The position numbers and the translations under genes were made by a program. The notes under the pieces were generated by a model that worked only from the letters and a program-made list of their open reading frames with translations, had not been told where the DNA came from and ran no database searches. A stretch of DNA of 64,000 bases from positions 67,891 through 131,890 of the forward strand of contig JAHILA010000014.1 of NCBI GenBank assembly GCA_018897295.1. The letters run 5' to 3'. Below, piece after piece: positions 17,917-53,012 of this stretch (the stretch's first letter is position 1; each line of letters begins with the position of its first letter). This DNA comes from Patescibacteria group bacterium (lineage in GTDB: Bacteria > Patescibacteriota > Minisyncoccia > RBG-13-40-8-A).

Positions 17917-18031
17917 TTATGCCCCGTAGTGAATTTTTGACTGGTCCGACGTCCGTCGGACCAAAATACTACAGGCATACATAATGATTAATTTTTAATT
18001 AGTCAAAAATCTACTACAGGGTATGAGTGTG
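17917..18031 (+). repeat. inverted-repeat leader element copy 1 (upstream of tyrS), ends at the start codon
   Basis: TTATGCCCCGTAGTGAATTTTTGACT ... TTAATTAGTCAAAAATCTACTACAGGGTATG; near-identical copy at 52931-53012; contains an internal perfect palindrome GGTCCGACG-TC-CGTCGGACC. Confidence 0.6.
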
Positions 18032-19207
18032 AAAATAGATGAAAACAAAATAGAAGAGATATTAACCCGCGGGGTAAGCGAGGTAATTGACCTAAAACAC
18101 TTGCGCGGGAAATTGATGTCTGGCAAAAAATTAAGGGTGAAACTTGGAATTGACCCCACCAGCCCCAATATTCATATTGGCAGAGCAGTTACATTGTTGA
18201 AAATGAAGGACTTTCAGGAGCTTGGCCACGAGATTATTTTTGTTATAGGCGACTTTACGGGCATGGTAGGCGATACTTCTGACAAAGATTCCGAAAGGCC
18301 GATGCTTTCCGGAGAACAGGTTAAGAAAAATATGAAAAATTATGTTGAGCAGGCAGGAAAGATTATCAATGTTAAAAAAGCCAAAATCGAACATAATTCA
18401 AAATGGCTTAAAAAACTTAATTTTGGCGAGATTAGTAAGTTAGCAAACCAATTTTCATTAGGAGAATTTATTGCCAGAGAAAATATCAGAAAAAGATTAG
18501 TAGAAGAAAAACACATTTCTCTAAGAGAATTACTATATCCTTTATTGCAAGGATATGACAGTATTGCAATCAAAGCAGATGTTGAACTTGGCGGGACAGA
18601 CCAAAGATTTAATTTATTAGCAGGCAGGACATTGCAAGAACATTATGGCCAGGAAGCGCAGGACATTTTAATGACTAATCTAATTTTGGGAACTGATGGC
18701 AGGAAAATGAGCTCAAGTTGGGGGAATACAATTAATGTTACAGACGAGCCAAAAGATATGTTCGGAAAAGTGATGAGCATTTCAGATGATTTGATTATTA
18801 CTTATTTTGTGCATTGTACCCGCATTGATATGGATAAAATCAGGGAATATGGAAAAAAACTTTTACTGGAAATAACTAACCCGCGCGATATCAAGATGGA
18901 ATTGGCTTTTGAAATCGTAAAAATCTATTGGGGAGAAAAAGGCGCAGAAAAGGGCAAAAAATATTTTGTTTCGGTTTTCCAGAAAAAAGATTTACCGGAC
19001 GAAATCCAGAAATATAAATTAGCAGGAAGGGATATTGTTGATGTTTTGGTTGAAACAAAACTGGCAACGAGCAGAGGAGACGCAAAAAGACTGATTGAGC
19101 AGGGCGGGATTGAAATTGACGGCGAAGAAATAAAATCGATTGACATCACAGTTAATCGAGGAAGCGTAATTCAGAAAGGCAAGAGGTTCTTTGCAAAGAT
19201 AATTTAG
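18023..19207 (+). CDS. tyrS: tyrosyl-tRNA synthetase
   Basis: HIGH-type motif PNIHIGR, KMSSS motif, C-terminal S4-like domain (DAKRLIEQGGIEIDGE). Confidence 0.85.
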   Translation: MSVKIDENKIEEILTRGVSEVIDLKHLRGKLMSGKKLRVKLGIDPTSPNIHIGRAVTLLKMKDFQELGHEIIFVIGDFTGMVGDTSDKDSERPMLSGEQVKKNMKNYVEQAGKIINVKKAKIEHNSKWLKKLNFGEISKLANQFSLGEFIARENIRKRLVEEKHISLRELLYPLLQGYDSIAIKADVELGGTDQRFNLLAGRTLQEHYGQEAQDILMTNLILGTDGRKMSSSWGNTINVTDEPKDMFGKVMSISDDLIITYFVHCTRIDMDKIREYGKKLLLEITNPRDIKMELAFEIVKIYWGEKGAEKGKKYFVSVFQKKDLPDEIQKYKLAGRDIVDVLVETKLATSRGDAKRLIEQGGIEIDGEEIKSIDITVNRGSVIQKGKRFFAKII

Positions 19208-19226
19208 ATATGTTATACTGGTTTTC

Positions 19227-20387
19227 ATGGAGAGAAAGCGATTAACTTTCTTTATTTTAATAGCAGTTCTAATCGGTATTATTCTTGGAATCCTGCTTTG
19301 GAAAATCCTTAGCCCGAAACTGGGCGAAGGAGTTTTTTATTACCGACTTGATGGGAATAAAGCCAATTTGTTCTTATTAGATAATAAAGGCGAAGGCGAA
19401 AAGATTATTACGGTTGCTGCTCAGGAAGTTGATTTAGGCAAATACAAGCCGCCCCGCCATTCTTTTATTTCGCCGGACAGGCGCCAATTAGTTTATTTTA
19501 AAAAATCAAAGGAAGAGCAGATAGGAGATTTAGGCAACGGCATGATAGCAAGCAGGATTTATTATGATCCGATTCTGGTCAATCTAAAAACCGGAACAGA
19601 AAAGAAAATTGAACAGCCGATTGATTCAACCAGCTTGGTTTTTTCTCCGGATAGCAATAGCATTGCATGGATTAAAGAAATTAAAGATTCAACTTATGAG
19701 GAAATAGAGAAGAACGATACGAAGAGGGAGTTATGGATAAGTATAGCAGACGGTGAAAGTCCGCAACTATTAGCAAAATTTGAGGAAAATGTGCTTTTGT
19801 TAAAGCGCTGGAATGAAGATTATGTCTATTTTCAGGGAATTTTTGATGCGAATATCAAAAGCTTGGGTAGAATAAATATAAAAACCAAGAGAGTAGAATA
19901 TATAATTCCAAAAGGCTGCAATACTAATCTGACCAATTGCCAGAATATAGAATTCTCGCCAAGCGGCAAGATGTTTCTTTACGAGATCTACAGCAAGAAA
20001 AACGATAAGGAAATTACTGAGCTTTATTTGGGCGATTTCGAAAAAAGAGACTATAAACCGGTTTTAACCACAGATAGAATCAGTGACAAAATCTGGCTAG
20101 ATACAGAAAAAGGATTTTTTTACACAGAACAAAAGTCAGGTAAAAACAATGAAATAATTGAGACAATCCACTTGGTTGATTTATACAAGGAAACGGATAA
20201 TGAGATATACTCCGGAAGCTATATCAGCCAACTGGCATTTGACGGTTCCAGTAATTCTTTATACTTTCTTGAGAGGTCAGAAGGAGAAGAGCTGAATATG
20301 TTTAATATTATGAGATTAAATGTAAAAATCAAAGAAGCGGAAAAAATGCTGACCGAAAATTATAACAATATTTTAATCGTGCAGTAA
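19227..20387 (+). CDS. membrane-anchored PD40/TolB-like beta-propeller repeat protein, tentative
   Basis: N-terminal TM; repeated FSPD/FSPSG motifs (FSPDSNSIAW, FSPSGKMFLYEI). Confidence 0.4.
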   Translation: MERKRLTFFILIAVLIGIILGILLWKILSPKLGEGVFYYRLDGNKANLFLLDNKGEGEKIITVAAQEVDLGKYKPPRHSFISPDRRQLVYFKKSKEEQIGDLGNGMIASRIYYDPILVNLKTGTEKKIEQPIDSTSLVFSPDSNSIAWIKEIKDSTYEEIEKNDTKRELWISIADGESPQLLAKFEENVLLLKRWNEDYVYFQGIFDANIKSLGRINIKTKRVEYIIPKGCNTNLTNCQNIEFSPSGKMFLYEIYSKKNDKEITELYLGDFEKRDYKPVLTTDRISDKIWLDTEKGFFYTEQKSGKNNEIIETIHLVDLYKETDNEIYSGSYISQLAFDGSSNSLYFLERSEGEELNMFNIMRLNVKIKEAEKMLTENYNNILIVQ

Positions 20388-21553: not shown

Positions 21554-22434
21554 GTTGGATTTTATTAGTAATTTTAGCCCAGTTTTTCTACGCATTAGTT
21601 TTTATACTTGATAAATATATCCTTTCCAGGTCAATGCCGCACCAAGTGGTTTATTCTTTCTATGTTGGGGTTTTAGGCATATTTGTTTTAGTTTTAATTC
21701 CATTTGGATTTGTAATGCCCAATGGCGCGGAAGTTTTTTGGAGTTTAATTGCTGGAGTTGCGCAGATTAGTGCTTTCCTGTTTTTTTATAAAGCCGTAAA
21801 CAGAGAAGAAATTTCCAGGGTCGTGCCTTTTGTAGGCGCCGCAAGTTCAGTATTTGTTTTGATTTTGAGCTCCTGTATTATAAAAGAATTTCTAACATTT
21901 CAACAGATAATAGCTTTTTTATTATTGGTTTTGGGATGTTTAGTTGTAGGGTTTAGGAAAAAGCATTTTATGGGAAATGGGGTTTTGGGATTATCTATTG
22001 TTTCAGCTTTTTTCTTTGCGCTTTTTTGGGTAATCACTAAGTATTTATTTTTAGGAACCAATTTTGTCAGCGGTCTGATTTGGGTAAGGGTTGGGGTAGC
22101 GTTAATAGCTCTAACTTTATTGTTTTTGAAAAAGAACCGAGAGCTTATATTTTCAGAAACGAAACAGGTTAAATCAAAAACAACAAAATTCTTTATATTA
22201 GGCAGGACTTTAAATGTTGCGGGGAGCTTATTCTTGTATCTGGCAGTATTTTTGGGAAGCGTAACTTTGACAACTGCTTTTCAGGGATTGCAGTATGTTT
22301 TTGTTTTGATTTTGGCTTTATTATTATTGAAGAAGATTCCGGTTTTGAAAGAACAGTTTAATAAAGAGGTTCTTATTCAAAAGATCGTCGCCATCATCTT
22401 TATTTGTATAGGATTAAGTCTTTTGGTAATATAA
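21550..22434 (+). CDS. EamA/DMT-superfamily-like membrane protein
   Basis: About 10 TM helices in two halves, typical of drug/metabolite transporter folds. Confidence 0.45.
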   Translation: MSWILLVILAQFFYALVFILDKYILSRSMPHQVVYSFYVGVLGIFVLVLIPFGFVMPNGAEVFWSLIAGVAQISAFLFFYKAVNREEISRVVPFVGAASSVFVLILSSCIIKEFLTFQQIIAFLLLVLGCLVVGFRKKHFMGNGVLGLSIVSAFFFALFWVITKYLFLGTNFVSGLIWVRVGVALIALTLLFLKKNRELIFSETKQVKSKTTKFFILGRTLNVAGSLFLYLAVFLGSVTLTTAFQGLQYVFVLILALLLLKKIPVLKEQFNKEVLIQKIVAIIFICIGLSLLVI

Positions 22435-22438
22435 TATT

Positions 22439-23632: not shown

Positions 23633-23636
23633 ATTT

Positions 23637-24005: not shown

Positions 24006-24011
24006 TAAAAT

Positions 24012-24935: not shown

Positions 24936-24942
24936 CCAAGAT

Positions 24943-25848: not shown

Positions 25849-25878
25849 TATTTTATTTTTGTGATATAATAAAAATGT

Positions 25879-26331: not shown

Positions 26332-26335
26332 TTTT

Positions 26336-28746: not shown

Positions 28747-28753
28747 ATTTTAA

Positions 28754-40690: not shown

Positions 40691-40709
40691 CCCGAGCGAA
40701 GTCGAGGGC

Positions 40710-40738
40710 TTGACACGCGAATTAAATTTTTATACTAT
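40710..40738 (+). promoter_or_regulatory. sigma70-like promoter with an upstream GAGGGC motif
   Basis: GTCGAGGGCTTGACACGCGA...TATACT; same extended -35 context as the 16S and 23S promoters. Confidence 0.45.
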
Positions 40739-40842
40739 TTAAACATAAGAGATCCTTATTATTTGCTTCGGCAGTAATAAGTAACGAGAGGCCCCTTTGG
40801 GTCTCTTGTTTTAAGTTCAACATAAGAATATACTAAAATTAT

Positions 40843-41765: not shown

Positions 41766-41808
41766 AAATTTTTAATTTTTTCCTCGTAGTTTAAAAACAA
41801 AGAGGGGC

Positions 41809-41837
41809 TTGACACGTGATTTTAATTGATATATATT
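41809..41837 (+). promoter_or_regulatory. candidate 16S rRNA promoter
   Basis: AGAGGGGCTTGACA-N17-TATATT about 250 nt upstream of the 16S 5' end. Confidence 0.5.
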
Positions 41838-42086
41838 TTAAACACATAATTAATTAACCCCAGTAGTACAAACCTTTGGTTTGACTACGGGGCAAGCATA
41901 ATTCTTATGTAAAAAGAGCGAACAATTAAACGTACTTTAAAACAGAGTTTAGTTTTGGAATTTAGTTCAAAAATTGAGCTCTGTTTTAAATTGTTCTTTA
42001 AAATAGAAATATGTAATTGTACAGTAAGTTTGTGTGAGTTATTAGAGATCGAATCTTTTATAGTTGTTCTGATACAACTAAAATTA

Positions 42087-43560
42087 TTATTGAGAGTTTG
42101 ATCCTAGCTCAGGACGAACGCTGGCGGCGTGGATAAGGCATGCAAGTCGAATGGGTTTAGACCCATGGCGAACGAGTTAGTAACACGTAGGTACATCCCT
42201 CTGACTTGGGCATAACCCCGCGAAAGCGGGGATAATTCCCAATGGTGTCCCGATTTATCGGGACTAAAGGTTCCGGTGCAAATCGGAATCGGTGAGAGAG
42301 TGGCCTGCGGCCTATCAGCTAGTTGGTGAGGTAATAGCTTACCAAGGCTATGACGGGTAGGGGGCGTGAGAGCGTGTTCCCCAACGAGGGCACTGAGATA
42401 CGGGCCTTACTCCTACGGGAGGCAGCAGTCGAGAATCTTCCACAATGGGCGAAAGCCTGATGGAGCGACGCCGCGTGCATGAAGAAGTCCTTCGGGATGT
42501 AAAATGCTTTTATAAGGGAGCAATTTTTTGAGTGTACCTTATGAATAAGGGGTTGCTAAACTCGTGCCAGCAGCAGCGGTAATACGAGTGCCCCAAGCGT
42601 TGTCCGGAATTACTGGGCGTAAAGCGTCTGTAGGGGGTTTGATACGTCTTCTGTTAAATTTCGATGCTCAACATCGGAGCTGCAGGGGAAACGGTCAGAC
42701 TAGAGAGTGTGAGAGGCTGATGGAACTTAAGGAGTAGGGGTGAAATCCGTTGATACTTTAGGGAACACCAAAGGCGAAGGCATTCAGCTGGTGCATTTCT
42801 GACCCTGAGAGACGAAAGCGTGGGGAGCAAAAAGGATTAGATACCCTTGTAGTCCACGCCCTAAACTATGAATACTAGCTGTCTGAAGTATCGACCCTTC
42901 AGGTGGCGAAGCTAACGCGTTAAGTATTCCGCCTGGGAAGTACGGTCGCAAGACTAAAACTCAAAGGAATAGACGGGAGCTTGCACAAGCGGTGGAGCGT
43001 CTGGTTTAATTCGATGATAAGCGTAGAACCTTACCAGGACTTGAAATTCTAGTGAAACCCCGATGAAAGTCGGGTCTTCTACAAGGACACTAGAACAGGT
43101 GCTGCATGGTTGTCGTCAGCTTGTGGCGTGAGTTGCTCCGTTAATTCGGGTAACAAGCGCAACCCCTGTTGTCTGTTATATGTGTCAGACGAAACTGCCC
43201 CGTGATACGGGGAGGAAGGTAGGGATGACGCCAAATCAGCATGGCCCTCTGATGTCCTGGGCAACACAGGCGCTACAATGGCCGATACAATGGGTTGCCA
43301 AGCCGTAAGGTGGAGCCAATCCCATCAAAGTCGGTCCCAGTTCGGATTGGGGTCTGCAATTCGACCCCATGAAGTTGGAATCGCTAGTAATCGCAGATCA
43401 GCTACGCTGCGGTGAATACGTTCTCAAGCTTTGTACTCACTGCCTGTCACACCAGAGAAGCCGGGGGCACCTGACATTCTCGCATTGCGGGACCTAAGGT
43501 GAATTCGGTGACTAGGGTGAAGTCATAACAAGGCATCCGTAGGGGAACCTGTGGATGGAA
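42087..43560 (+). rRNA. 16S ribosomal RNA (3' boundary uncertain; canonical anti-SD not present after helix 45)
   Basis: AGAGTTTGATCCTAGCTCAG 5' end, internal universal blocks, 3' GTAGGGGAACCTGTGGATGGA; 515-site variant GTGCCAGCAGCAGCGGTAA. Confidence 0.9.
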
Positions 43561-43671
43561 AATATTTTTACTTAGTAACCATTTTGGATGCTAAGGAGAG
43601 TCGATTGAATCCGCCTTTGCGTAAAGCTTCGGCGGACAAGAGGGATTTAGATTTTTGTCCAAATAAAAATC

Positions 43672-43704
43672 AGGCCCGCTTCGACTCGCGAAGCGAGGCG
43701 AGTA
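43672..43704. repeat. GC palindrome element downstream of the 16S body
   Basis: GCCCGCTTCGACTCGCGAAGCGAGGCGAG (GCTTCG-ACTCG-CGAAGC). Confidence 0.5.
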
Positions 43705-43734
43705 TCAGGATAACTATAAAAGATTTGATTCAAA

Positions 43735-43761
43735 AAATCCTCCGCGTTGCGGGGGATTTTT
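43735..43761 (+). terminator. terminator-like hairpin containing the only CCTCC near the 16S 3' end
   Basis: AATCCTCCGCG-TTG-CGGGGGATTTTT. Confidence 0.45.
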
Positions 43762-43832
43762 AGTTCTCTATTGCATATTGTATTATTTTAGCTGTATAAT
43801 AGAATTAGTAATTATTAAATAAAAAAAACATT

Positions 43833-43991
43833 ATGGCAGATGTAGCATACTGCGTAAAATGCAGAAAAAAAGAAGAGATGAAAAATGCAGTAGAGGTTAA
43901 AATGAAAGGGAAGGGGGGAGACAGAAGGGCATTGAAAGGAATTTGTCCTGTTTGTGGAACTGGAATGTTCAGGATTTTAGGCAAAGCTTAA
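43833..43991 (+). CDS. small zinc-ribbon protein (52 aa), candidate
   Basis: CVKC-x24-CPVC; below the ORF-track size cutoff; followed by a hairpin AATCCCGCG-ACG-CGGGATT; no SD. Confidence 0.35.
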   Translation: MADVAYCVKCRKKEEMKNAVEVKMKGKGGDRRALKGICPVCGTGMFRILGKA

Positions 43992-44048
43992 AAGATTTTA
44001 AAAAATCTTATCAAAATTAATCCCGCGACGCGGGATTAATTTTGAGAA

Positions 44049-44120
44049 GGGCGTGTAGTTCACCGGTAGAACGCTTCACTGATAATGAAGAAGTAGAAGG
44101 TTCGACTCCTTCCACGCCCA
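44049..44120 (+). tRNA. tRNA-Ile (anticodon GAT)
   Basis: Manual cloverleaf: GGGCGTG/CACGCCC acceptor, anticodon loop CTGATAA, T-arm GAAGG-TTCGACT-CCTTC. Confidence 0.8.
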
Positions 44121-44143
44121 CTCAACTCGTCTTAATTTTGTTC

Positions 44144-44214
44144 GGGCCTATAGTTTAATGGTAGAACACCGCATTTGCAATGCGGAAATAGCAGTCCGAT
44201 TCTGCTTAGGTCCA
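44144..44214 (+). tRNA. tRNA-Ala (anticodon TGC)
   Basis: G3:U70 identity pair, anticodon loop TTTGCAA; T-loop slightly atypical. Confidence 0.7.
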
Positions 44215-44218
44215 CAAT

Positions 44219-44247
44219 TAAAAAATCTCGCTATGCGAGATTTTTTA
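44219..44247. terminator. bidirectional Rho-independent terminator (tRNA cluster / murC)
   Basis: AAAAATCTCGC-TAT-GCGAGATTTTTT. Confidence 0.75.
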
Positions 44248-44262
44248 ATATTTTAATTCATC

Positions 44263-45567
44263 TTATTTTTTCATTTCTTCTCCAATCTTATATACATCTC
44301 CCGCGCCGAGAAAGAGAATAATACTATTTTTATCAGTATTTTGTTCCAAATAGTTTTTTATTTCGTCAAAACTACTGATGTATTTCGCATTGACGGTCTG
44401 CATTGCTTTAACTAAATCTTTGGAATGGATTGTGTGGTCATCTTTTTCACGCGTAGCATAGATATCAGTGATAATAACTTCATTTGCCAAATTAAAACTT
44501 TCTGCAAAATCATTTAATAAAAGTTTTGTGCGCGAATATAAATGCGGTTGGAAAACAACAATCAGTTTATAGTTTGGATATTGTTCGTTGCAGGTTTTTA
44601 AAGTTGCTTTTATTTCTGTGGGGTGGTGGCCGTAGTCATTGTAAAGTAATGCGCCATTTTTTGCATTGCCCATAAATTCAAACCTGCGCCAGGTGCCAGT
44701 ATAATTTTTTAGGATTTTTAAAGCGGTTTTTTCTTCTATTCCGCACAATTTGGCCGCGTCAAACGCGGCTTGCGCATTTTTAAGATTGTGTTCGCCGGGA
44801 ATGGATAATTTAATATCGGCTTTTCCTTCATTATAATCAATTATCTTTGCCAATTGGTTTATTTTTTTTGCTTTTTTAATTGCTTTGTCCGTATTTTCGT
44901 CATTTAAATCGCAGATAATATATTCTTTTGTTTTGGCGATTAATTTTGCAAAAGCATTTTGGATGTTTTCAATATTTTCATAATAATCCAAATGGTCACT
45001 ATCAATATTTAAAATTACGAGAATATTCGGAGTCAGGTTCAAGAATGATTCTTTATATTCGCAGGCTTCAACAATAAAATATTTACTGCTTCCTAAAACA
45101 AAATTATCTTCCTGTTTTTTTAAAAATCCGCCGACAACAACAGTAGGGTCTAAGTTTCCATAAATCATCAATTCAGCAAGCATGGAAGTAGTGGTTGTTT
45201 TGCCGTGGGCTCCGGATATGGCAATGGTATACATATCTTTGGAAATCAATCCAAGGATTTCTGGATACGAATAAATTGGAATGTTTAGCGTTCTGCCATA
45301 AATTAATTCTGGATTATCCTCGGTTATGGCAGGGGAGTAGATAATCATATTTGTATCTGAAGGCAGATTTTCTTTTTTGTGGTCAATAAAAACCTTCCCC
45401 CCGATTTTTTCAATCCGTTCAGTCGTTTTTCCCGCGGAAATATCAGAACCAGTAACCTTTATACCTTTTAACCGCGCCATTCTGGCAATTGCAGACACTC
45501 CGACACCCCCAATTCCGATAAAATGTATTTTCTTAACGTGGTCGAACATAAGTTTAAATTTTATCAC
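44263..45567 (-). CDS. murC: UDP-N-acetylmuramate--L-alanine ligase
   Basis: IHFIGIGGVGVSAIA N-terminal Rossmann, GAHGKTTTTSM P-loop, Mur ligase C-domain. Confidence 0.85.
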   Translation of the reverse strand: MIKFKLMFDHVKKIHFIGIGGVGVSAIARMARLKGIKVTGSDISAGKTTERIEKIGGKVFIDHKKENLPSDTNMIIYSPAITEDNPELIYGRTLNIPIYSYPEILGLISKDMYTIAISGAHGKTTTTSMLAELMIYGNLDPTVVVGGFLKKQEDNFVLGSSKYFIVEACEYKESFLNLTPNILVILNIDSDHLDYYENIENIQNAFAKLIAKTKEYIICDLNDENTDKAIKKAKKINQLAKIIDYNEGKADIKLSIPGEHNLKNAQAAFDAAKLCGIEEKTALKILKNYTGTWRRFEFMGNAKNGALLYNDYGHHPTEIKATLKTCNEQYPNYKLIVVFQPHLYSRTKLLLNDFAESFNLANEVIITDIYATREKDDHTIHSKDLVKAMQTVNAKYISSFDEIKNYLEQNTDKNSIILFLGAGDVYKIGEEMKK

Positions 45568-45629
45568 AGAGAATCTTTGTTGCCAAATTAATTTTGTGCT
45601 ATAATTAATTATGTTATAATTAAATTAAA

Positions 45630-45678
45630 GGTCGACCTGCCTGCAACGTCAGCAAACTGTCTTGCGTGGCGGGCAGGG
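45630..45678. repeat. GC palindrome element in the divergent intergenic region
   Basis: GACCTGCCTGCAACG...CGTGGCGGGCAGGG. Confidence 0.45.
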
Positions 45679-45703
45679 AATTAAGAATTAAAATTATTTT
45701 ATT

Positions 45704-46372
45704 ATGTTAGAAATATTACTTGATTCATTGACGCAAATTTGGCAGAGCTTTATTGAGTTCTTACCGACATTATTGGCATCTTTAATCGTTTTCATTGTAG
45801 GCTGGTTGATTGCTATATTCTTGGGCAAGATGGTTAACCGAATGATAAAAGCTATAAAACTTGATCTGCTTTTAGAAAGGCTTAATTTTCAGAAAGCATT
45901 AGCCAAAGCAAGATTAAAATTGGACTCTCCGAAGTTTTTTGAAGAACTTGTAAAATGGTTTTTCATTATCGTTTTCTTAATGACAGCAGTTGAGATTTTA
46001 GGATTAGTAGAGGTAACTCTGTTTTTAAAGGGCATCCTTTATTACATACCTAATGTTGTGATTGCCGCTATCATGCTTTTGGCCGCAGCTATTGTTGCGA
46101 AGTTTATGCAGAAATTAGTGAAAGCCAGTGCTGATACTGCCGGCCTTTCATCAGCAAATGCGATTTCCGGAGTTGTGAAGTGGGCAATTTTGATTTTCGG
46201 TTTTGTAATTGCTTTAACCCAATTAGGAATTGCCGCAGCTTTAATCCAGACAATCATTATTGGAATTATTGCTATGATTACGATTGCAGGCGGTCTTGCA
46301 TTCGGCCTAGGAGGAAAGGATCTGGCAGCTAATATTCTGGACAAAATTAGGCAGGATTTAAGCGATAGATAG
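45704..46372 (+). CDS. membrane protein with conserved TM-helix repeats (MscS/CmpX-like family, tentative)
   Basis: Repeated hydrophobic helices with G/A-rich faces; no enzymatic motif. Confidence 0.4.
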   Translation: MLEILLDSLTQIWQSFIEFLPTLLASLIVFIVGWLIAIFLGKMVNRMIKAIKLDLLLERLNFQKALAKARLKLDSPKFFEELVKWFFIIVFLMTAVEILGLVEVTLFLKGILYYIPNVVIAAIMLLAAAIVAKFMQKLVKASADTAGLSSANAISGVVKWAILIFGFVIALTQLGIAAALIQTIIIGIIAMITIAGGLAFGLGGKDLAANILDKIRQDLSDR

Positions 46373-46383
46373 TAATAGAGGAC

Positions 46384-46412
46384 TTGACACGCGATTTTTT
46401 ACCATTTACAAT
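46384..46412 (+). promoter_or_regulatory. candidate 23S rRNA promoter
   Basis: GAGGACTTGACA-N17-TACAAT about 200 nt upstream of the 23S 5' end. Confidence 0.55.
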
Positions 46413-47136
46413 GGTAGTGTTGTTAGTTTATATGAGAAAAAACCAAAAACAATTTATAAAAAAGAGCGGTTGATAAAACCAGGTATTTTCATACCCGTGG
46501 ATGTCAAACCGCTAAAAGCGGTTTTTTCAATCCTGAACTTTGAAAATTGAATATGTATAGCAAGTAATAAAAGTAATAATAAGTAGTAGTATCTATAAAT
46601 TGCCAGCTATATTAAGCAGGTTATATATTAAGGGTGTATGGTGGATGCCTTGACATTAGAAGACGAAGAAGGACGTGGCGTAACTGCGATAAGCCTCGGG
46701 GAGGTGTGTAGCGACCTTAGATCCGGGGATGTCCGAATGGGGAAACCCAATATAGTGATAAACTATATTATCCCGACTTTATTGTTGGGAGGTGAACTCG
46801 GCGAAGTAAAACATTTCAGTAGCCGGAGGAACAGAGAAAAACTTTATTCCCCAAGTAGTGGCGAGCGAAAAGGGAAGAGCCCAAACCTGATGGTCCCGCA
46901 TTTGTGGGATTATTAGGGGTAGTAAGATAGTGACGTCGGGAGAAATCCCGGGGAGTGAATACAAAACTAAGACTTCCTTAGTTGAAAGGGATGGAAAGCC
47001 CTACCGAAGAAGGTAATAGTCCTGTAAGCGAAAAGGGTCTTATACTCCTAGTCATTAATCTTGAGTACCGCGAGAACATGCAGTCTCGCGGGAATCATCC
47101 TGAACTATCTAGGAAAGGCTAAATACTTCTAATGAT

Positions 47137-47175
<39 letters not shown>

Positions 47176-48447
47176 GCCCGACAAGGGCAGTGAAATAGTA
47201 CCTGAAATCATACACTTACAAAGAGTCGGAGCCCCGCATTAGCGGGGTGACGGCGTGCTTTTTGCAGAACGAACCAACGAGTTTACCGTAGACTGTTTTG
47301 TCTAAGTCCGTAAAGGACGGAGGCGTAGGGAAACCGAGTGTTAATAGCGCGTTTTATAACAGTATGCGTAAGACCCGAAGCCAGGTGAGCTACCCATGGC
47401 CAGGATGAACCCCGATGAAAATCGGGGGGAGGTCCGAACCCATCGGCCGTGCAATACCGTGGGATGAGCTGTGGGTTGGAGTGAAAAGCTAATCGAACCT
47501 GGTAATAGCTGGTTCTCCTCGAAATATGTTTAGGCATAGCCTCTTATTTTTCTCCTTAGGGGTAGAGCACTAAATGGGCTGAGGTGGCGCAAGCCTACTC
47601 ACTCAATTAAACTCCGAATACTAAGACAGATAATAAGGGAGTAAGACTGTGGGGGCTAAGCTCCATAGTCAAAAGGGAAACAGCCCAGATCGTCATCTAA
47701 GGTCCCAAAACTAAGTTAAGTGGGAAAAGAAGTGCCTCGTCTTATACAGATGGGATGTTGGCTTAGAAGTAGCCATCATTTAAAGAGTGTGTAATAACTC
47801 ACCATTCTATTTATGACGAAGTGCGCTGAAAATGTAACGGGGCTCAAACTTAGTACCGAAGATACGAATTTCTCTCCGATTTATCGGAGAGGAGTGGTAG
47901 AGGAGCATTTCTTGTGCTGTGAAGTCATTTCGTGAGGAATGGTGGAGCGCAAGGAAGAGAGAATGTTGGTATGAGTAACCGCAAGTCTGATGCGAAATCA
48001 GACCACCGAAAGCCCAAGGATTCCTTGGCAATGTAAATCAACCAAGGGTTAGGCGGGCCTAAGGCAATCCCGAAAGGGGTAGTCGATGGACAGTCGGTTA
48101 ATATTCCGACCCTTCTGTATTTTTTTATGGAGTGACGGAGTTTAGTAGATAGGGCAGATTATTGGATTTTTGTCTGTATATTAAGAAGCTAGGCTAGGTA
48201 AATCCGGTTTAGAATACTTCAAGATATGCAGGAAGTTTCGATTTCGATCGGGATTACCCTATTGAGCAGACTTCCAAGAAAAACTTCTAAAATAAGAATA
48301 CAGGATCCGTACCGCAAACCGACACAGGTGGGCAGGGCGAGAAGCCCAAGGTGAACGGGTTAACCCTCGTTAAGGAACTCGGCAAAATAGCGGCCGTAAG
48401 TTCGCAATAAGGCCTTCCCCCGCTTAGCGGGGGACGCAGCTAAAGAT

Positions 48448-48478
<31 letters not shown>

Positions 48479-49347
48479 CCTGCTAACTCGTAAGAGGATG
48501 TATAGGGGCTGACACTTGACCAGTGCTGGAAGGTTAATGGTGGGGGTGTCTCGACCTTGCGTCGGGATGCTCACTGCTTGAAGCCCCAGTGAACGTCGGC
48601 GATAACTATAATCGTCCTAAGGTACCGAAATTCCTTGGCATGTAAGTTATGTCCTGCAGGAAAAGTGTAACGACTGGAGAACTGTCTCAACGAGGAGCCC
48701 GGTGAAAATGCAGTGTCAGTGAAGATGCTGACTACCTGCGACAAGACGAAAAGACCCCAGGAGCTTTACTATAACTTGGTATTGTTTTAATGTTTTTGAT
48801 GCGTAGCGTAGACGGTAGGATTTGAAGGTCGCCTCTCGGGGCGGCTGGATCCGACAATGAAACACCGTTCTTTAAAAATGTTAAAACTAACCCCTCCGTA
48901 ACAGAGAGGGACAGTGCCAGGCGGGTAGTTTTAGTGGGGCGCTAGCCTCCTAAAGAGTAACGGAGGCGTTTATTAAGGTCGACTAGCTCCGGATGGAAAT
49001 CGGAGTGATAGTGTAAAGGCAAAAGTCGGCTTTACTGCAAGACTGACAGGTCGCGCAGTTGCGAAAGCAGAACTTAGTGAACCGACTCTGGTTAATAGAA
49101 TCGGAGAAGATCATCGGACAAAAGCTACCCTGGGGATAACAGGCTGGTAGGCGCTAAGAGTTCATATCGACGCGTCTGTTCGGCACCTCGATGTCGGCTC
49201 ATCTCATCCTGGAGGTGGAGAAGCTTCCAAGGGTTTGGCTGTTCGCCAATTAAAGAGGTACGTGAGCTGGGTTCAAACCGTCGTGAGACAGGTTGGACTC
49301 CTATCTGTCGTAGGCGTAGATACTTGAGAGACTTTGTCCCTAGTAAG

Positions 49348-50104
49348 AATATTGCTACTTCACGAAGTAATTCGTGATGACAATGTGGCTTATAACGGTG
49401 AAGTCTTAATAAAATATGGTCTATTGATAATCATTATTGCATCGGTCCAATAATAATGATACAATTTAATTGAGGACCAGATAATTATTAAGATAATACC
49501 GTGGGAAGTCGATCTAAAATTAATTATGCGTATATTGCAGGATTTCTTGATGGTGATGGAAGTTTAATGTTTCAAATCAAAAAACGGAAAGATGGCAAAT
49601 CTAAAATAAGATTTATGCTGACTATCTGTTTTTATCAAGATTCTAGACATGCAAAACCACTATACTGGATTAAAAGAGTTTTGAGGATAGGTTATATCTC
49701 AAAACGTAAAGACGGAATTACTGAATTAAGGATTAACGGTTTTAAGCAGATTAAGGATATAGTGGGGAATTTAATTCCATTTATCAAATTTAAGAAAGTC
49801 CAAGCAAAAGCAATATATAGCGCTGCGAATCTTTTGAATTGTGTAAAAAACAAGGATTTATCTGAGAAAGATTTACACAGGTTAATAAATTATATTCTGG
49901 TGATTCAGAATAATAATTATGTGACCAAAAAAAAGAAGACTAAAAAAGATTTGTTAAAGATTTTAGATTTGACCCCGTAACGACTTGATCCGATTTCCAT
50001 CGGATCGGAGTTCAGTAGAAATACTGAGCTAATACGCCACTACCCTAATTCCGATTAACGTCGGAATGGGTAAAGATATAGTCTGCGCACATAGTGATAT
50101 GTGA
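49348..50104 (+). mobile_element. intron (probably group I) in 23S rRNA carrying a homing endonuclease gene
   Basis: Insertion between exon sequences CCCTAGTA and CGAGAGGACC; contains the LAGLIDADG ORF; boundaries approximate. Confidence 0.6.
49501..49980 (+). CDS. LAGLIDADG homing endonuclease (intron-encoded)
   Basis: YIAGFLDGDGSLMF LAGLIDADG motif; 159 aa, single-motif type; located inside the 23S gene. Confidence 0.85.
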   Translation: MGSRSKINYAYIAGFLDGDGSLMFQIKKRKDGKSKIRFMLTICFYQDSRHAKPLYWIKRVLRIGYISKRKDGITELRINGFKQIKDIVGNLIPFIKFKKVQAKAIYSAANLLNCVKNKDLSEKDLHRLINYILVIQNNNYVTKKKKTKKDLLKILDLTP

Positions 50105-50405
50105 TAACGTGACGAGAGGACCGGGATGAACAAACCTCTGGTGTACCAGCTGTCCTGCCAAGGGCACTGCTGGGTAGCTATGTTTGGCAGAGATAAATGC
50201 TGAAAGCATATAAGCGTGAAACTCTTCTCAAGATTAAGTATCATAGATTCCTTGAAGACTACAAGGTTGATAGGCTTCAGGTGTAAGTCCTGTAAAGGAT
50301 TTAGCCGAGAAGTACTAATAAATCATTTTGCCTGTTTAATACGGCTGGCAATTTTTGGACACTACACTTTAAAATAATTTTATTTGCAACAAACAAGATT
50401 GCGGT

Positions 50406-50528
50406 CATTGTAAGGGGGTTATACTTGGGGTGCTCCACCTGATCCCATTCCGAACTCAGAAGTGAAATCCTTAAAGGCCGATGGTACCCCGATGAACTTC
50501 GGGGAAGAGTAGGTGACCCTCCTACAAT
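50406..50528 (+). rRNA. 5S ribosomal RNA
   Basis: CCACCTGATCCCATTCCGAACTCAGAAGTGAAA and GGCCGATGGTACCCCG...GGGGAAGAGTAGG conserved blocks. Confidence 0.75.
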
Positions 50529-50799
50529 GCCCGCAATTTAAAGGCGTTGACCCTGCAACACAGGTGAGCTGAGGAAAGAAAGCTTTAATAAGCGAGTAGA
50601 ATCCTACGGGCGTGCCCGTTATAGCACAAAGACCGTGTCGGATTTCCAGAGCGGTTGGAGAGATTCAATTAGTAATAATTGAATGAAATAAGGTGGCAAC
50701 ACGATAAAAATCGTCCTTATGAGATTATCATTTTTGGTAATTTCGTGAGGTCGATTTTTTTTTATTTATTAATTATTAATAAAAGTAAAAATAAAATAT

Positions 50800-52107
50800 A
50801 TGGAAAGAATTTTAATTTCTAAAATTAAAGAAAAAATTGGACAAAAGACCAAAATCATTGGCTGGGTTTATAATATACGCGATATAGGGTCCATAAAATT
50901 TTTGGTCATCAGGGACGTAAGCGGAATAATTCAGGTAGTCGTTAGTGGCGAAGAATTAATAAAAGTTGTTAAACCAATAAGACTGGAATCAATCGTTGAA
51001 ATTATTGGTATAGTTAAAACGGAGAAACAAGCACCAGGAGGAATTGAAATAATGGCAGAAGAAATAAAAATAATTTCAATTCCATTAGAAACGCCTCCAA
51101 TTTCTGTTTTGGAAAAGGAAGAAACAGAAGCGTCTTTGGAAAAAAGAATGGATTGGCGCTGGATTGATTTAAGAAAACCTCGGAAACAATTGATTTTTAA
51201 GGTTTGGACAACAATGGAAATGGCTTTTAGGAAATGGTGGCTTGAACATGGATTTATTCAGATACATTCTCCGAAATTAATGAGTGCGGCGAGTGAAATC
51301 GGGTCAGAACTTTTTCAGATTTCTTATTTTAACGGAAAAGCATATTTGGCTCAATCGCCACAATTCTATAAACAAATGGCAATGGCATCGGGATTTGAAA
51401 AGGTCTTTGAAATCGGTCCTGTTTTTCGGGCAAACCCATCGTTTACTTCAAGACATGATACAGAATTTACCAGTTACGATATTGAAATGTCATTTATTGA
51501 ATCACACCAAAAATTAATCGAGACAGAACAAGAAATGTTTGTTTATATGATTTCTGAAGTTAAAGAAGAGTACGGTGAGGAAATTGAAAAAGAATTTGGA
51601 AGGAAATTAGTTATTCCTACAATTCCGTTTCCTCAAATTACCATGAAGGAAGCAAAAGAAATGCTTTCTCATTATGATATTAAAAACAGAAGGGAGGGGG
51701 ACTTAAGCCCCGAAGAAGAAAGAAAACTGAGTGAAATCATAAAAGAAAAATACGGGCATGAATTTTGTTTTGTTACCGAATATCCGAGCAGCGTTCGGCC
51801 GTTTTATCATATGCGTCCACAAGGAGATTCTAAATTTACAAAAAGCTTTGATCTTCTGTGGAATGGTCTAGAGATTACAACAGGCGCTCAAAGAGAGCAT
51901 CGATACGAGGTTCTGAAAAAACAAGCGATTGAAAAAGGAATCAAAACCGAAGAGATTAAACATTATCTGGAATTCTTTAAGTATGGCTGTCCGCCTCATG
52001 GGGGATTTGCGATTGGCGCGACAAGATTACTTATGAAGATATTCAATATTGGCAATGTCAGAGAAGTTACTTATCTTTATCGCGGCGTTAAAAGATTAAC
52101 TCCATAG
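50800..52107 (+). CDS. aspS: aspartyl-tRNA synthetase, archaeal/compact type (probably non-discriminating)
   Basis: QSPQFYKQMAMASGFEKVFEIGPVFRA, RHDTEFTSYDIEMSF, GGFAIGATRLLM class IIb motifs; 435 aa; gatB present in the window. Confidence 0.7.
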   Translation: MERILISKIKEKIGQKTKIIGWVYNIRDIGSIKFLVIRDVSGIIQVVVSGEELIKVVKPIRLESIVEIIGIVKTEKQAPGGIEIMAEEIKIISIPLETPPISVLEKEETEASLEKRMDWRWIDLRKPRKQLIFKVWTTMEMAFRKWWLEHGFIQIHSPKLMSAASEIGSELFQISYFNGKAYLAQSPQFYKQMAMASGFEKVFEIGPVFRANPSFTSRHDTEFTSYDIEMSFIESHQKLIETEQEMFVYMISEVKEEYGEEIEKEFGRKLVIPTIPFPQITMKEAKEMLSHYDIKNRREGDLSPEEERKLSEIIKEKYGHEFCFVTEYPSSVRPFYHMRPQGDSKFTKSFDLLWNGLEITTGAQREHRYEVLKKQAIEKGIKTEEIKHYLEFFKYGCPPHGGFAIGATRLLMKIFNIGNVREVTYLYRGVKRLTP

Positions 52108-52176
52108 CCACAAAAGAAAAACTGCTTAATTTATAAGCAGTTTTTCTTTTCCTTAAAGTTTGTTATAATATAATTA

Positions 52177-52929
52177 ATGAATCCATATACTAAAAAACAA
52201 TTTATTATCGGATTGGTGTGGGTGGTGATTTTTGCGATTATCATTGGCGGGATTTATTTATTGATAAAATCAGAAACTCCCCCTGTTAATAATGGAAATC
52301 AAAACGAACCAAAGGAAGATTTAATTATTTTATCCCAATCTTTTATTCTGACTACGGAAAATAATTTTGACTTGGTTGCTAAAATTAAAAATTCCAATAA
52401 TGAATGGGCAGCCGAGTCATTTACTTATGTTTTTAACTTATACGACAGCGCTAATCAGTTGATTGGTTCGCGACAAGGTAAATCATACATTCTGCCACAA
52501 GAAACAAAATACATTATTGAACAGAAAGTTTCTTCGCAAAAATCAATCTCAAAAATCGAATTAAAAATTAGTAATGTCTACTGGGGAAAAATAAGCCAAT
52601 TAGGAGGCCTAGAATTAAGAGTGAAAAATACAGAATACCAAATATTGGAAGATGGCAGCAATCTGTTTACAGGCACAGTGGAAAATAAAAGCAGTTATGA
52701 TTTAGACACTATAGAAGTTGCCGGAGTTTTGCTCAATGAAAATAATGAGATTATTGCTGCTGGTAAAACCTCAATGAACACAGTTTTAAGAAATGAGAGC
52801 AGGGGATTTGAAATTTTTTGGCCTTATCCTATTGCGCAGGAAACCAAATCGTTTGACGCCAGGGCTTATACTAATATTTTTTTGAATGACAATTTTATCA
52901 AAACCCAGGGCGAACCGCCAAAAGAATAA
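52177..52929 (+). CDS. membrane-anchored/secreted hypothetical protein
   Basis: N-terminal TM, then a soluble domain without recognisable motifs. Confidence 0.4.
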   Translation: MNPYTKKQFIIGLVWVVIFAIIIGGIYLLIKSETPPVNNGNQNEPKEDLIILSQSFILTTENNFDLVAKIKNSNNEWAAESFTYVFNLYDSANQLIGSRQGKSYILPQETKYIIEQKVSSQKSISKIELKISNVYWGKISQLGGLELRVKNTEYQILEDGSNLFTGTVENKSSYDLDTIEVAGVLLNENNEIIAAGKTSMNTVLRNESRGFEIFWPYPIAQETKSFDARAYTNIFLNDNFIKTQGEPPKE

Positions 52930-52930
52930 A

Positions 52931-53012
52931 TTATGCCCCGTAGTGAATTTTTGACTGATGCTACGGGCATCAAAATAATTTTTAATTAGTCAAAAATCTA
53001 CTACAGGGTATG
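52931..53012 (+). repeat. inverted-repeat leader element copy 2 (upstream of ftsW/rodA), ends at the start codon
   Basis: ATTATGCCCCGTAGTGAATTTTTGACTGATGCTACGGGCATC...TTAATTAGTCAAAAATCTACTACAGGGTATG; matches 17917-18031. Confidence 0.6.

Follow-up and report, generated by a model that had tools for sequence, protein, structure and literature searches.

Why would a gene for tyrosine--tRNA ligase (tyrS) and a gene of the FtsW/RodA/SpoVE family (rodA) share a hairpin that reaches into their start codons? A preliminary description of the 64-kb window that we analyzed (the whole stretch of DNA, from a member of the Patescibacteria) offered two answers: a MITE-like mobile unit that supplies a start context, or an RNA switch common to a gene for translation and one for the cell wall. 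We consider it quite likely that the two copies are non-autonomous, miniature (MITE-like) members of a mobile family that is specific to Patescibacteria and whose long form is a GIY-YIG gene bracketed by the family's arms.

Two copies of an inverted repeat at the start codons of tyrS and rodA

Copy 1 lies at 17922-18021 (100 bp), upstream of tyrS, and copy 2 lies at 52936-53008 (73 bp), upstream of rodA (all features are on the forward strand). Each copy has inverted arms of 20-21 bp, which are identical between the copies, and a direct TATG on both sides; the right-hand TATG holds the ATG of tyrS or rodA. The two shared blocks are exactly as first reported: TTATGCCCCGTAGTGAATTTTTGACT is found at 17917-17942 and 52931-52956, and AGTCAAAAATCTACTACAGGGTATG at 18001-18025 and 52988-53012. 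Each has 2 matches in the window with up to 3 mismatches and none in 100 dinucleotide shuffles, and both were also recovered as repeat families (D9 and D10) and by aligning the copies, whose identity ends exactly at the arms plus TATG. Within the 64-kb window, neither a profile search (arm HMM via nhmmer) nor fuzzy arm searches found a third copy, intact or degenerate.

The centers of the copies differ, as the preliminary description had it. Copy 1 has, from left to right, a TATG at 17918-17921 (the left half of a 4-bp target-site duplication, given the single TATG in the empty site L047, below); the left arm CCCCGTAGTGAATTTTTGAC(T) at 17922-17942; a perfect palindrome, GGTCCGACG-TC-CGTCGGACC, which is a variable hairpin module, at 17943-17962; AAAATACTACAGGCATA, in which the right arm and its flank recur inside the element in degenerate form, at 17963-17979; an A/T-rich segment ending in TTTTTAATTA at 17980-18001; the right arm GTCAAAAATCTACTACAGGG at 18002-18021; and the right TATG at 18022-18025. 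The palindrome recurs at other loci of the family (L006, L014, L018, L024, and L158), as does AAAATACTACAGGCATA (L006, L014, L018, and L074), while the A/T-rich segment is common to the whole TATG subfamily and is similar to the 3' end of the GIY-YIG ORF of one long unit, L174. In copy 2, the left TATG (52932-52935) and left arm (52936-52956) are followed by an inner hairpin, TGATGCTACGGGCATCA (52956-52972), with a 3' half that complements the left junction (ATGCCC(C)GTAG), and then by an A/T-rich segment, AAATAATTTTTAATTA (52973-52988), the right arm (52989-53008), and the right TATG (53009-53012). The arms of both copies were delimited by the arm pattern and by profile searches.

The downstream genes are also as first named. 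The product of tyrS (18023-19207, 394 amino acids) matches Pfam tRNA-synt_1b, and the ATG at 18023 is the true start, as close homologues are all 394 amino acids long; this start codon was the target. The gene downstream of copy 2 (53010-54095, 361 amino acids, starting with the ATG at 53010) belongs to the FtsW/RodA/SpoVE family and is named RodA by our sources. A 250-amino-acid ORF lies upstream of it at 52177-52929, and before the insertion, its stop codon TAA (52927-52929) was 3 nt from the ATG of rodA.

The long stem was also borne out. The arms of each copy complement each other for 20-24 nt, a stretch that includes one G.T and one A.C position, and RNA folding gives -44.6 kcal/mol for the region of copy 1 and -31.8 kcal/mol for the region of copy 2 (z about -6; 0 of 200 shuffles were as stable as either). 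In both predicted folds, the A and U of the start codon are at the base of the stem.

Both copies are recent insertions

Orthologous sites without the element are available for both genes. TyrS orthologues (91%, 89%, and 77% identity) and RodA orthologues (96%, 94%, and 81% identity) have the same flanks, a single TATG, and no element. For example, the tyrS site of L047 (91% identity) reads ...GCTATAATAAAAT[TATG]AGT and those of L051 and L052 read ...GCTATAAT(N6-7)ATG, while the window reads ...GGCTAAAATAAAGT[TATG]-100 bp-[TATG]AGT. Similarly, the rodA sites of L055-L059 (94-96% identity) read ...GAATAAAT[TATG]TTCATATAT; in the window, the same flanks enclose an additional 73 bp and a second TATG, and L060 is also empty. 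At both sites, near-identical genomes differ in whether the element is present. These comparisons indicate that both copies are recent insertions and not an evolved leader.

What, then, of a cis-regulatory RNA (a leader, a thermosensor, or something like a riboswitch) that evolved to sequester the start codon and to co-regulate tyrS and rodA? The strong hairpin does take in the A and U of the AUG, alternative pairing of inner segments with the 5' arm is conceivable, and the TATG-type copies all have one orientation relative to the gene. But the nearest orthologues of both genes lack the element, and target duplications are found on both sides of it. Furthermore, the family adjoins dozens of unrelated genes, and it includes copies at the 3' ends of genes, where a TAG in the element serves as the stop codon, as well as copies inside -35 boxes in either orientation. 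There was no Rfam match above noise: at the gathering threshold, the whole window has only rRNAs and tRNAs, and at E ≤10, the two copies have only sub-threshold, generic matches to miRNA-like hairpins. Covariation of the arms is unusable as evidence for a functional RNA because the loci were picked by an exact arm pattern. Compensatory changes in the arms are present in diverged units, and they are equally expected for transposon ends. An RNA switch as the origin of the element is largely refuted, and we consider this explanation very unlikely.

It could also be argued that one upstream region was simply copied to another in the same genome, as the arms of copies 1 and 2 are 100% identical. 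This is already refuted, and we give it practically no chance of being right: the identity stops exactly at the arms and TATG, the inner parts are two different sub-types (100 bp and 73 bp), and the same element is found in many other genomes at many other genes.

A family of short elements with a 4-bp target-site duplication

The preliminary description had reasoned that if there were only these two copies and no covariation, then they would reflect a simple recent duplication. In fact, the pattern CCCYGTAGTRRATTTTTGAC matches 24 loci in 17 MAGs, all of them Patescibacteria, and at least 120 loci in metagenomes. Each representative MAG has 1-5 loci with exact arms. (As the loci were gathered with an exact arm pattern, the conservation of the arms is inflated, and a partner with diverged ends could be missed.) A unit of this family has two inverted arms of 20-24 bp, CCCCGTAGTGAATTTTTGAC and GTCAAAAATCTACTACGGGG, which always differ at the same two positions. 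Of the 20 arm positions, 18 are each paired in at least 95% of 87 elements; the others are position 4, which is paired in 74%, and position 11, where there is a fixed A.C mismatch. The short forms are non-coding, are 61-162 bp long, and have hairpin modules between the arms.

The target-site duplication is exactly 4 bp. The 4-mers on either side are identical in 64 of 87 unique paired elements, as compared to 1 of 87 for the next 4-mers outward; identical flanks of 3, 5, or 6 nt were seen in 3, 5, and 0 of the 87. Nested and tandem insertions also occur. The short forms look like MITEs: they are small, non-coding, and multicopy, with terminal inverted repeats, a fixed-length duplication, and precise empty sites. 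Hence the suggestion of a MITE-like unit was right about the mobility but not about the start context: the element does not supply the start codon, as the ATG belongs to the host's TATG, which the empty sites already have and which the duplication restores.

We also considered a model like that of IS200/IS605, in which the right-hand tetranucleotide is part of the element itself and insertion takes place 3' of a target that matches it. We rejected this model because the duplicated 4-mer varies within one sub-type (the 63-bp elements have CTTG, TTGA, TCAA, TCCA, TATA, or TATG) and because mismatched pairs are altered on either side (CATG/TATG in L006 and TATG/CATG in L064).

Long forms of the element have a GIY-YIG gene

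Some members of the family are longer. Three long units of 296-320 bp (L019, L156, and L174) each contain a GIY-YIG ORF (Pfam PF01541, E = 1e-16) and have duplications of their own (TTCT, TAAA, and TATG, respectively); a further long unit has TTTA. L174 has both the arm type of the window's copies and the TATG duplication. The gene is promoterless, with 6 nt between one arm and its start and 0-3 nt between its end and the other arm; the exception is L174, whose frame continues through the right arm. The protein is 88-91 amino acids long and has a single domain (PF01541 only). When we examined related GIY-YIG genes, 5 of 5 were bracketed by arms with the same geometry (P0095, P0036, P0001, P0062, and L019), and in total, we found the repeat-flanked gene at eight loci or groups of loci, with at least 6 independent insertion contexts. 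The two arms of these units covary (CCCAG..TGAT with ATCA..CTGGG, or TTTTTAGAT with ATCTAAAAA). More than 965 homologues of the protein exist, mostly of 88 amino acids. NCBIfam has no match for the family's protein, and among structures, it matches UPF0213 weakly (1zg2, E = 0.004). The gene was not found within the 64-kb window (by tblastn).

We infer that the GIY-YIG protein mobilizes the family. It would act in trans on the arms, probably when they are folded into a hairpin in single-stranded DNA (as for Ssn nucleases), and so move both the short and the long forms; the short forms would be derivatives with internal deletions.

On the other hand, it is DDE transposases (as in IS5, IS701, and IS1380) that are characterized by inverted ends together with a duplication of fixed length, and we know of no GIY-YIG enzyme with transposition or strand-transfer activity. 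Perhaps this is an ordinary MITE that is moved in trans by a DDE-type IS transposase with the same ends, and in some copies the GIY-YIG gene is only a passenger or has invaded secondarily. The terminal inverted repeats and the fixed 4-bp duplication are what such an enzyme would produce. However, none of 128 arm pairs are 400-2500 bp apart, which leaves no partner of the size of a DDE insertion sequence among them, and most of the apparently solo arms have diverged partners nearby. Also, across those insertion contexts, the GIY-YIG ORF takes up the interval between the arms and keeps its 6-nt spacing, the long units have their own 4-bp duplications, and the arms diverge in step with the protein. 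So we consider a DDE-type transposase unlikely and favor mobilization by the GIY-YIG protein.

Insertions rebuild the signals that they target

Of 26 elements of the TATG type, 24 coincide with the ATG of an ORF, and all have a single orientation. A TATAAT-like box is 4-8 nt upstream at 15 of these 26 sites, versus 23 of 83 control genes; often, the box is 6-8 nt before the insertion. At another 16 sites, the element lies within a TTGAC -35 box; a -10 box is present at a distance of 16-18 nt for 14 of them, versus 17% of control TTGAC sites. Outside of the TATG subfamily, the elements have either orientation relative to genes. The association with start codons is partly expected, given that 33 of the window's 54 genes have TATG at their start and that gene starts account for 53% of non-genic TATG sites; the excess over this expectation (about 2e-5) is real but not dramatic. 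Whichever signal is hit, -35 box or ATG, the insertion regenerates it and does not destroy it.

Does this mean that the host benefits? The repeats could have been domesticated, as Ssn/NTS-like repeats that tag genes for a nuclease specific to single strands, which would modulate recombination or the uptake of DNA, with positions at promoters and starts being selected, for instance as portable promoter or leader modules. A GIY-YIG gene between repeats, along with dispersed repeats, parallels the Ssn system (PMC11893778); the host signals are preserved; and copy 2 has a promoter-like TTGACT-17-AATAAT. Yet the copy number is low (1-5 exact-arm loci per representative MAG, and 2 in the window), presence or absence differs between near-identical genomes, the nested and tandem insertions look selfish, and copy 1 has no promoter-like site. 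Domestication thus seems to us quite improbable.

Comparison to known systems

The closest known system is that of the Ssn nucleases, which are single-strand-specific GIY-YIG enzymes with SRM/NTS repeats (Chenal et al. 2025, Nat Commun, PMC11893778). The ssn gene is bracketed by inverted copies of the repeat, which is also dispersed, almost always outside of genes; the authors remark that this layout resembles an insertion sequence and ask whether repeat-ssn-repeat units are mobile elements (PMC11893778). Like Ssn, the long form of our family has a gene for a single-domain GIY-YIG protein of about 90 amino acids that is flanked by inverted repeats. Using SRM-flanked plasmid genes from Azospirillum and Shinella as stand-ins for Ssn proteins, we found that the catalytic residues align and are invariant across eight family members and these two proteins. 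The similarity is weak (33-39% identity; tblastn E = 4e-4 to 7e-4), and the Patescibacteria protein lacks the C-terminal NPDW..DLY segment of the SRM-flanked proteins. The published SRM search motif (HGTCWYN(0-2)YYVSBRHN(0-5)WNVSBRGN(0-2)RNCYNB) has 4 matches at each of two positive controls (the proteobacterial genes L181 and L182) but none in the window, in either copy, or around L019 and L029. An SRM is a self-contained hairpin, whereas our arms pair with each other across the unit. And unlike NTS/SRM repeats as described, our elements have exact 4-bp duplications, empty sites, and short non-coding derivatives.

Among bacterial MITEs, the Correia elements of Neisseria and the RUP elements of Streptococcus are likewise short and non-coding, with terminal inverted repeats and a fixed-length duplication. 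Those elements are intergenic, are often co-transcribed as a hairpin, and can provide or alter promoters or end reading frames; known MITEs derive from, or are mobilized by, insertion sequences with DDE transposases. Our elements differ in that the only coding partner that we found is a GIY-YIG nuclease and in that they duplicate 4 bp (Correia elements duplicate TA) at TATG start codons or -35 hexamers (TTGA or CTTG). REP/REPIN elements have a single-copy RAYT gene (Y1, IS200/IS605-like) between inverted short repeats, and the repeat, which has a GTAG tetranucleotide near its 5' end, spreads as hairpin-forming doublets. Our family also has a small nuclease gene flanked by inverted copies of a dispersed repeat, and its arm has a GTAG near the 5' end (CCCC-GTAG-TG...). 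However, REPs and IS200/IS605 insert without a target duplication, and our partner is GIY-YIG instead of HUH/Y1. (REP/REPIN-RAYT elements are discussed in PMC11893778.)

In the literature that we searched, we found neither a prokaryotic GIY-YIG element with terminal inverted repeats and target-site duplications nor any description of MITEs or of the repeat or mobile-element content of Patescibacteria. This family may be an undescribed class of prokaryotic DNA transposon of about 300 bp, with an 88-amino-acid GIY-YIG protein as its sole gene product. The nuclease would recognize the hairpin of the two arms, would cut the target with a 4-nt stagger, and would be directed to the TATG of leaderless genes and to the TTGACA -35; promoterless copies would use host promoters, the duplication would restore the host's signal, and the copies in the window would be miniature derivatives. 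We hold this proposal tentatively and lean slightly against it. If it is true, these rank with the smallest self-contained mobile elements. Should the GIY-YIG protein prove to be the mobilizing enzyme, then Ssn nucleases would be linked to real transposition, which would answer their discoverers' question, and a very small, site-directed system for DNA insertion would be on offer.

More broadly, the genomes of Patescibacteria are tiny and densely packed, and this family illustrates a way for a mobile element to maintain itself in them: by inserting into the signals that flank genes (start codons, -35 boxes, and stop codons), which are rebuilt by the target duplication.

Consequences for tyrS and rodA

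For the window, we propose that two members of the family inserted recently into the TATG that holds the start codon of tyrS or rodA, and that these insertions were tolerated because the TATG was duplicated, so that each gene kept an intact ATG. Any effect on the host would be a by-product. At rodA, a 77-nt hairpin-forming stretch would now separate the ATG from the stop codon of the formerly coupled upstream gene. At tyrS, a 104-nt hairpin-forming stretch would separate the ATG from a native promoter of the leaderless type. The putative -10 box of this promoter is TAAAAT (17907-17912), 6 nt upstream of the left-hand ATG; sequence comparison identifies it as the counterpart of the GCTATAAT box, which precedes the ATG of tyrS by 7-8 nt in orthologues that lack the element. 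The left-hand ATG opens a potential upstream ORF of 21 codons (MPRSEFLTGPTSVGPKYYRHT*, 17919-17984), which would be in use if transcription still starts at the native leaderless position.

Both genes are presumably still translated, either through unfolding of the stem by a ribosome that initiates at the left-hand ATG or through transcription from a weak promoter within the element. In copy 2, AAATAATTTTTAATTA and the TTGACT of the left arm score as promoter-like (10/12, a match to the consensus only). Scoring against the promoter consensus found no such site in copy 1, so we dropped an internal promoter common to both copies as a general explanation. Finally, the element breaks short-read assemblies, and start sites and "leaders" in Patescibacteria could be wrongly annotated because of it.

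The two copies are insertions

The preliminary description reported two sequence blocks shared by the regions upstream of tyrS and of an FtsW/RodA-family gene (RodA by source naming). These blocks are real. The window contains exactly two copies of the left block (26 nt) and two of the right block (25 nt), and neither had a match in shuffled sequences, even with up to three mismatches. A repeat analysis of the window also recovered them, as families D9 and D10. When the two regions are aligned, the identity runs from TTATG through GGGTATG, and everything outside of it is unrelated sequence. An arm profile search of the window found no additional copy. The window lies on contig JAHION010000002.1 of the Patescibacteria MAG GCA_018895295.1.

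By comparing these regions to other members of the family, we set the exact boundaries of copy 1 (17922-18021, 100 bp, before tyrS) and copy 2 (52936-53008, 73 bp, before rodA). The element proper is CCCCGTAGTGAATTTTTGAC ... GTCAAAAATCTACTACAGGG, and each copy has the direct repeat TATG on both sides. The ATG had been counted as part of the element, but it is really the right-hand copy of this direct repeat. Because the proteins have the same length in all close homologues of TyrS and RodA, both ATGs are real starts.

The arms are complementary, as had been claimed, and the RNA is predicted to fold at -44.6 kcal/mol for copy 1 and -31.8 kcal/mol for copy 2 (z ~ -6). In both folds, the base of the stem includes the A and U of the start codon. 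The arms are also asymmetric: one is GTAGTGAATTTT and the other, as its reverse complement, is GTAGTAGATTTT, and these differences give one G.T and one A.C position in the hairpin. This asymmetry is preserved in 82-83 of 87 family members. The interior of copy 1 has a perfect palindrome, a degenerate second right arm, and an A/T-rich tail; that of copy 2 consists of a short hairpin (TGATGCTACGGGCATCA) followed by the same tail.

At the loci of the TyrS orthologues at 91%, 89%, and 77% identity, the gene order is conserved and the element is missing. For example, the tyrS locus L047 reads TTTTGCTATAATAAAAT-TATG-AGTATAAAA, and the window reads AGGGCTAAAATAAAGT-TATG-element-TATG-AGTGTGAAA. Similarly, the loci of the RodA orthologues at 96% and 94% identity read GAATAAAT-TATG-TTCATATATC, with a single TATG, and the window has the same flanks, nearly base for base, plus 73 bp and a second TATG. 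The element is also absent upstream of an 81% identical RodA, where the flanks have diverged. Both copies are precise pairs of filled and empty sites, so the element is not an ancestral leader of either tyrS or rodA. The identical rodA insertion is present on one metagenome contig (L101).

A family of elements across Patescibacteria

We searched for relatives with a degenerate 20-mer that fits both arms. Among species-representative MAGs, 24 stretches matched in 17 MAGs, all of them Patescibacteria (Nealsonbacteria, Wildermuthbacteria, Paceibacterota, Parcubacteria, and bins labelled Saccharibacteria), and at least 120 stretches from JGI metagenomes matched. Pairing the arms among the matches listed gave 128 elements, of which 87 were unique. 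The flanking 4-mers are identical in 64 of these 87, as compared to 3 for 3 nt, 5 for 5 nt, and none for 6 nt, and the next 4 bases outward are identical in just 1 of 87. Thus the duplication is exactly 4 bp and is far above chance. The elements are intergenic or overlap the last codons of a gene, in which case a TAG within CCCCGTAG provides a new stop codon. Some copies are in tandem or nested.

It had been suggested that the element was either MITE-like or a regulatory RNA shared by the two genes. The 4-bp duplication, the empty sites, and the copies across Patescibacteria support the first idea. The empty sites and the variety of contexts argue against a shared riboregulator and rule out an evolved regulatory RNA as the origin. 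A simple duplication within the genome is also excluded.

Several details of the other copies deserve mention. In the nested insertions (L065 2508-2659, L079 3276-3431, L105 1324-1435, and L157 209-348), the second element has a different arm dialect (e.g., CCCCGTAGAGAAATTTCGAA) and lies within the loop of the inner GCTTCGC / GCGAAGC mini-hairpin of the first, with an apparent 5-nt duplication (CTTCG / CGAAG). A truncated copy, with one arm plus about 30 nt and direct CATCAA flanks, is conserved in two or three related MAGs or contigs (L027 411-470, L028 3165-3225, and L168 ~840-903); it might be what is left of an element after decay or partial deletion. Finally, in the Logan assemblies of run SRR11548473, from the source sample, the tyrS and rodA contigs (L002 1-27 and L004 1-27) both stop within the right arm, 27 nt short of the ATG. 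That the element breaks short-read assemblies is no surprise for a repeat.

Insertion at start codons and at -35 boxes

Of the 24 identical TATG duplications, 23 belong to the window's sub-type; the other (L111) is of a 63-bp type. Among elements with TATG on the right flank, the right-hand ATG opens a real open reading frame in 24 of 26 cases. The genes that were hit include those for thioredoxin reductase, phosphoglucomutase, ribosomal protein L10, FtsA, ribonucleotide reductase, Fpg (twice), and, in a second lineage, RodA again. The elements at start codons have one orientation relative to the gene throughout. Also, a TATAAT-like hexamer lies 4-8 nt before the ATG at 15 of the 26 sites, as compared to 23 of 83 control genes. 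Fourteen of these 15 hexamers are at 6-8 nt, ten are perfect, and most are preceded by TG. These target genes, tyrS included, look like leaderless-type genes.

The association with start codons is partly expected, given how TATG is distributed in the window: 33 of 54 genes (61%) start with TATG, and the two strands together have 412 TATG sites, with 33 at gene starts and 29 at other, non-genic positions. If insertion into TATG were random and the intragenic hits were then lost, about 53% of the elements would be at starts. The observed rate of at least 92% is an excess (binomial p ~2e-5), and this model gives no account of the strict orientation of the TATG-type copies.

Other sub-types have another target. 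At 16 unique sites (L008, L013, L063, L079, L103, L130, L158, L163, L167, and others), the element lies within TTGAC(A), and TTGA or CTTG is duplicated. A -10-like hexamer is found 16-18 nt downstream at 14 of these 16 sites, as compared to 17% of 1247 control TTGAC sites. These targets are promoter -35 boxes. The duplication rebuilds the box beside its -10 element, and the two orientations are equally common (8:8). Whether the target is a start codon or a -35 box, its duplication preserves the host signal.

We also note some features of the promoters themselves. Motifs like Shine-Dalgarno sequences are rare (9 of 83 control genes), and in many genes the ATG is preceded, at 6-8 nt, by a TGnTATAAT box (for examples, see the tyrS loci without the element: L047 2980-3000, L051 487-507, and L052 2978-3000), which suggests that leaderless-type expression is widespread in this lineage. 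The window contains two promoter-like pairs of direct repeats, at 40706-40745 / 41805-41844 (GGGCTTGACACG...TATACT / TATATA) and at 54120-54172 / 63785-63837 (TTGACA...TAGGATATT / TGTATAATG, then GTAAGAAAAATCTTACAA). The GGGCTTGACA context in these repeats is the element family's preferred -35 target.

A GIY-YIG nuclease shares the ends of the element

Most arms that seem to be single have a diverged partner close by. The only long units are 296, 316, and 320 bp, and each is filled by one open reading frame, which encodes a single-domain GIY-YIG nuclease of 88-91 amino acids (Pfam PF01541, E = 1e-16). These units, too, are flanked by 4-bp duplications (TATG, TTCT, and TAAA). Searching with the protein instead gave over 965 close homologues, nearly all of 88 amino acids, from organisms named Nomurabacteria, Paceibacterota, or Patescibacteria. 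All four of the loci that we looked up are bracketed by arms, as [arm]-6 nt-ATG ... TAA-2 or 3 nt-[arm]. The arms vary by lineage yet remain complementary (CCCAGTAGTAGATTTTTGAT / ATCAAAAATTCACTACTGGG; CCCGGTAAGTAGATTTTTAGAT / ATCTAAAAACTCACTTCCGGG), and the catalytic Tyr, Tyr-x-Gly, Arg, His, and Glu are invariant in the aligned sequences. The 64-kb window does not contain a GIY-YIG gene.

One long unit, L174, shares its arm type with the window copies, carries a TATG duplication, and points the same way as the host gene. The final 18 nt of its reading frame (AAAGATTATTTTTATA-GTC) are similar to the A/T-rich tail in the miniature copies (AAGATAATTTTTAATTA-GTC), so the short forms look like internal-deletion derivatives.

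To sum up, a hairpin-ended element inserts with a 4-bp duplication and a strong bias to start signals, and a promoterless GIY-YIG unit shares its ends. Inverted ends and a duplication are also the classic products of DDE enzymes, and the nuclease might be a passenger of a MITE that such an enzyme mobilises. But we saw no such partner: among the arms that we paired, none were 400-2500 bp apart, so no unit of the size of an insertion sequence was seen. The nuclease unit is also too regular, and it co-varies with its arms. We consider a DDE enzyme to be unlikely.

The closest described system is Ssn/SRM, in which copies of a hairpin repeat lie on both sides of the gene for a single-domain GIY-YIG nuclease and are also scattered across the genome. 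As positive controls, we used two SRM-type loci, from Azospirillum (L181) and Shinella (L182). Each contains four matches to the SRM motif, while the Patescibacteria arms contain none and, unlike the Ssn/SRM repeats, are not self-contained hairpins. The proteins align with those of Azospirillum and Shinella over their whole length (33-39% identity) and have a different C-terminus. Furthermore, the Patescibacteria family has target duplications, empty sites, and apparent miniature derivatives, none of which is reported for the Ssn repeats. A role that benefits the host, as for Ssn, would be compatible with mobility, but it seems quite improbable to us. MITEs and REPIN/RAYT are partly alike, but their enzymes (DDE and Y1, respectively) and footprints are different.

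Our literature search found no description of this element family. The finding is real, and an apparent GIY-YIG partner accompanies the MITE-like element. It is possible, and we suggest it tentatively, that these are a new class of nuclease-only transposon. What sets the family above an ordinary repeat is this apparent partner, together with how precisely the elements target start codons and -35 boxes in minimal genomes.

Some related loci are less regular. At L036 (~1930-2420) and L043 (~1930-2350), a GIY-YIG unit lies within the 3' end of the SHMT gene (glyA), and about 18 C-terminal codons of SHMT are present twice, before and after the unit, in diverged form (ending with IARLMDKVLRKTR and a stop upstream and with IARKMDKVLRGKK and a stop downstream). 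This repeat exceeds a 4-bp duplication. Distant GIY-YIG paralogues (~40% identity; L086 ~7700-8050, L090 ~1030-1380, which is the same as L114, and L066 ~4900-5200) are flanked by other hairpin repeats that start with CCCGTAG or contain GTAG (e.g., CCCGTAGGTCGCTTATGGCGACCGAGGG); these bacteria may thus have a broader range of nuclease-repeat pairs. In the control loci (L181 479-987 and L182 430-1032), each side of the plasmid GIY-YIG gene has two NTS-like repeats in inverted orientation (CGTCATCCCCGCGAAGGCGGGGATCCAG), and the Azospirillum unit is between sufB and sufC.

Possible mechanism and effects on tyrS and rodA

Ssn enzymes bind a hairpin and cut the single-stranded DNA beside it (PMC11893778). 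By analogy with these enzymes, we infer that the nuclease acts on the ends of the element, probably on the stem that the arms would form in single-stranded DNA. Host repair at a break with a 4-nt stagger could then finish the insertion. By landing just 3' of a -10 box in one orientation, the promoterless nuclease gene would be transcribed from the host's promoter, and the placement of L174 fits this.

At tyrS, the native -10-like box TAAAAT (17907-17912) now faces the left-hand ATG (17919), which opens a potential reading frame of 21 codons that ends at 17984; the real ATG is 38 nt beyond. At rodA, the distance from the stop codon of the upstream gene to the ATG has grown from 3 nt to 80 nt. 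As tyrS and rodA are both presumably essential, their expression must persist. A ribosome that starts at the left-hand ATG, or that comes through from the upstream gene, might melt the stem and expose the true ATG. Alternatively, there might be a weak promoter within the element (putatively TTGACT-17-AATAAT, in copy 2 only).

An interrupted rRNA operon

The window also contains an interrupted rRNA operon (42086-50525). It begins with the 16S, tRNA-Ile, and tRNA-Ala genes, which are followed by a Mur-ligase gene on the minus strand (44263-45567) and a gene similar to MS channels (45704-46372). Next is the 23S gene (46618-49342), whose match to the 2925-position Rfam model runs end to end; the gene is shorter than the model by about 200 nt. 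Between the 23S and 5S (50411-50525) genes is a 159-amino-acid reading frame (49501-49980), whose counterpart in L058, one of the rodA loci without the element, is a LAGLIDADG endonuclease.
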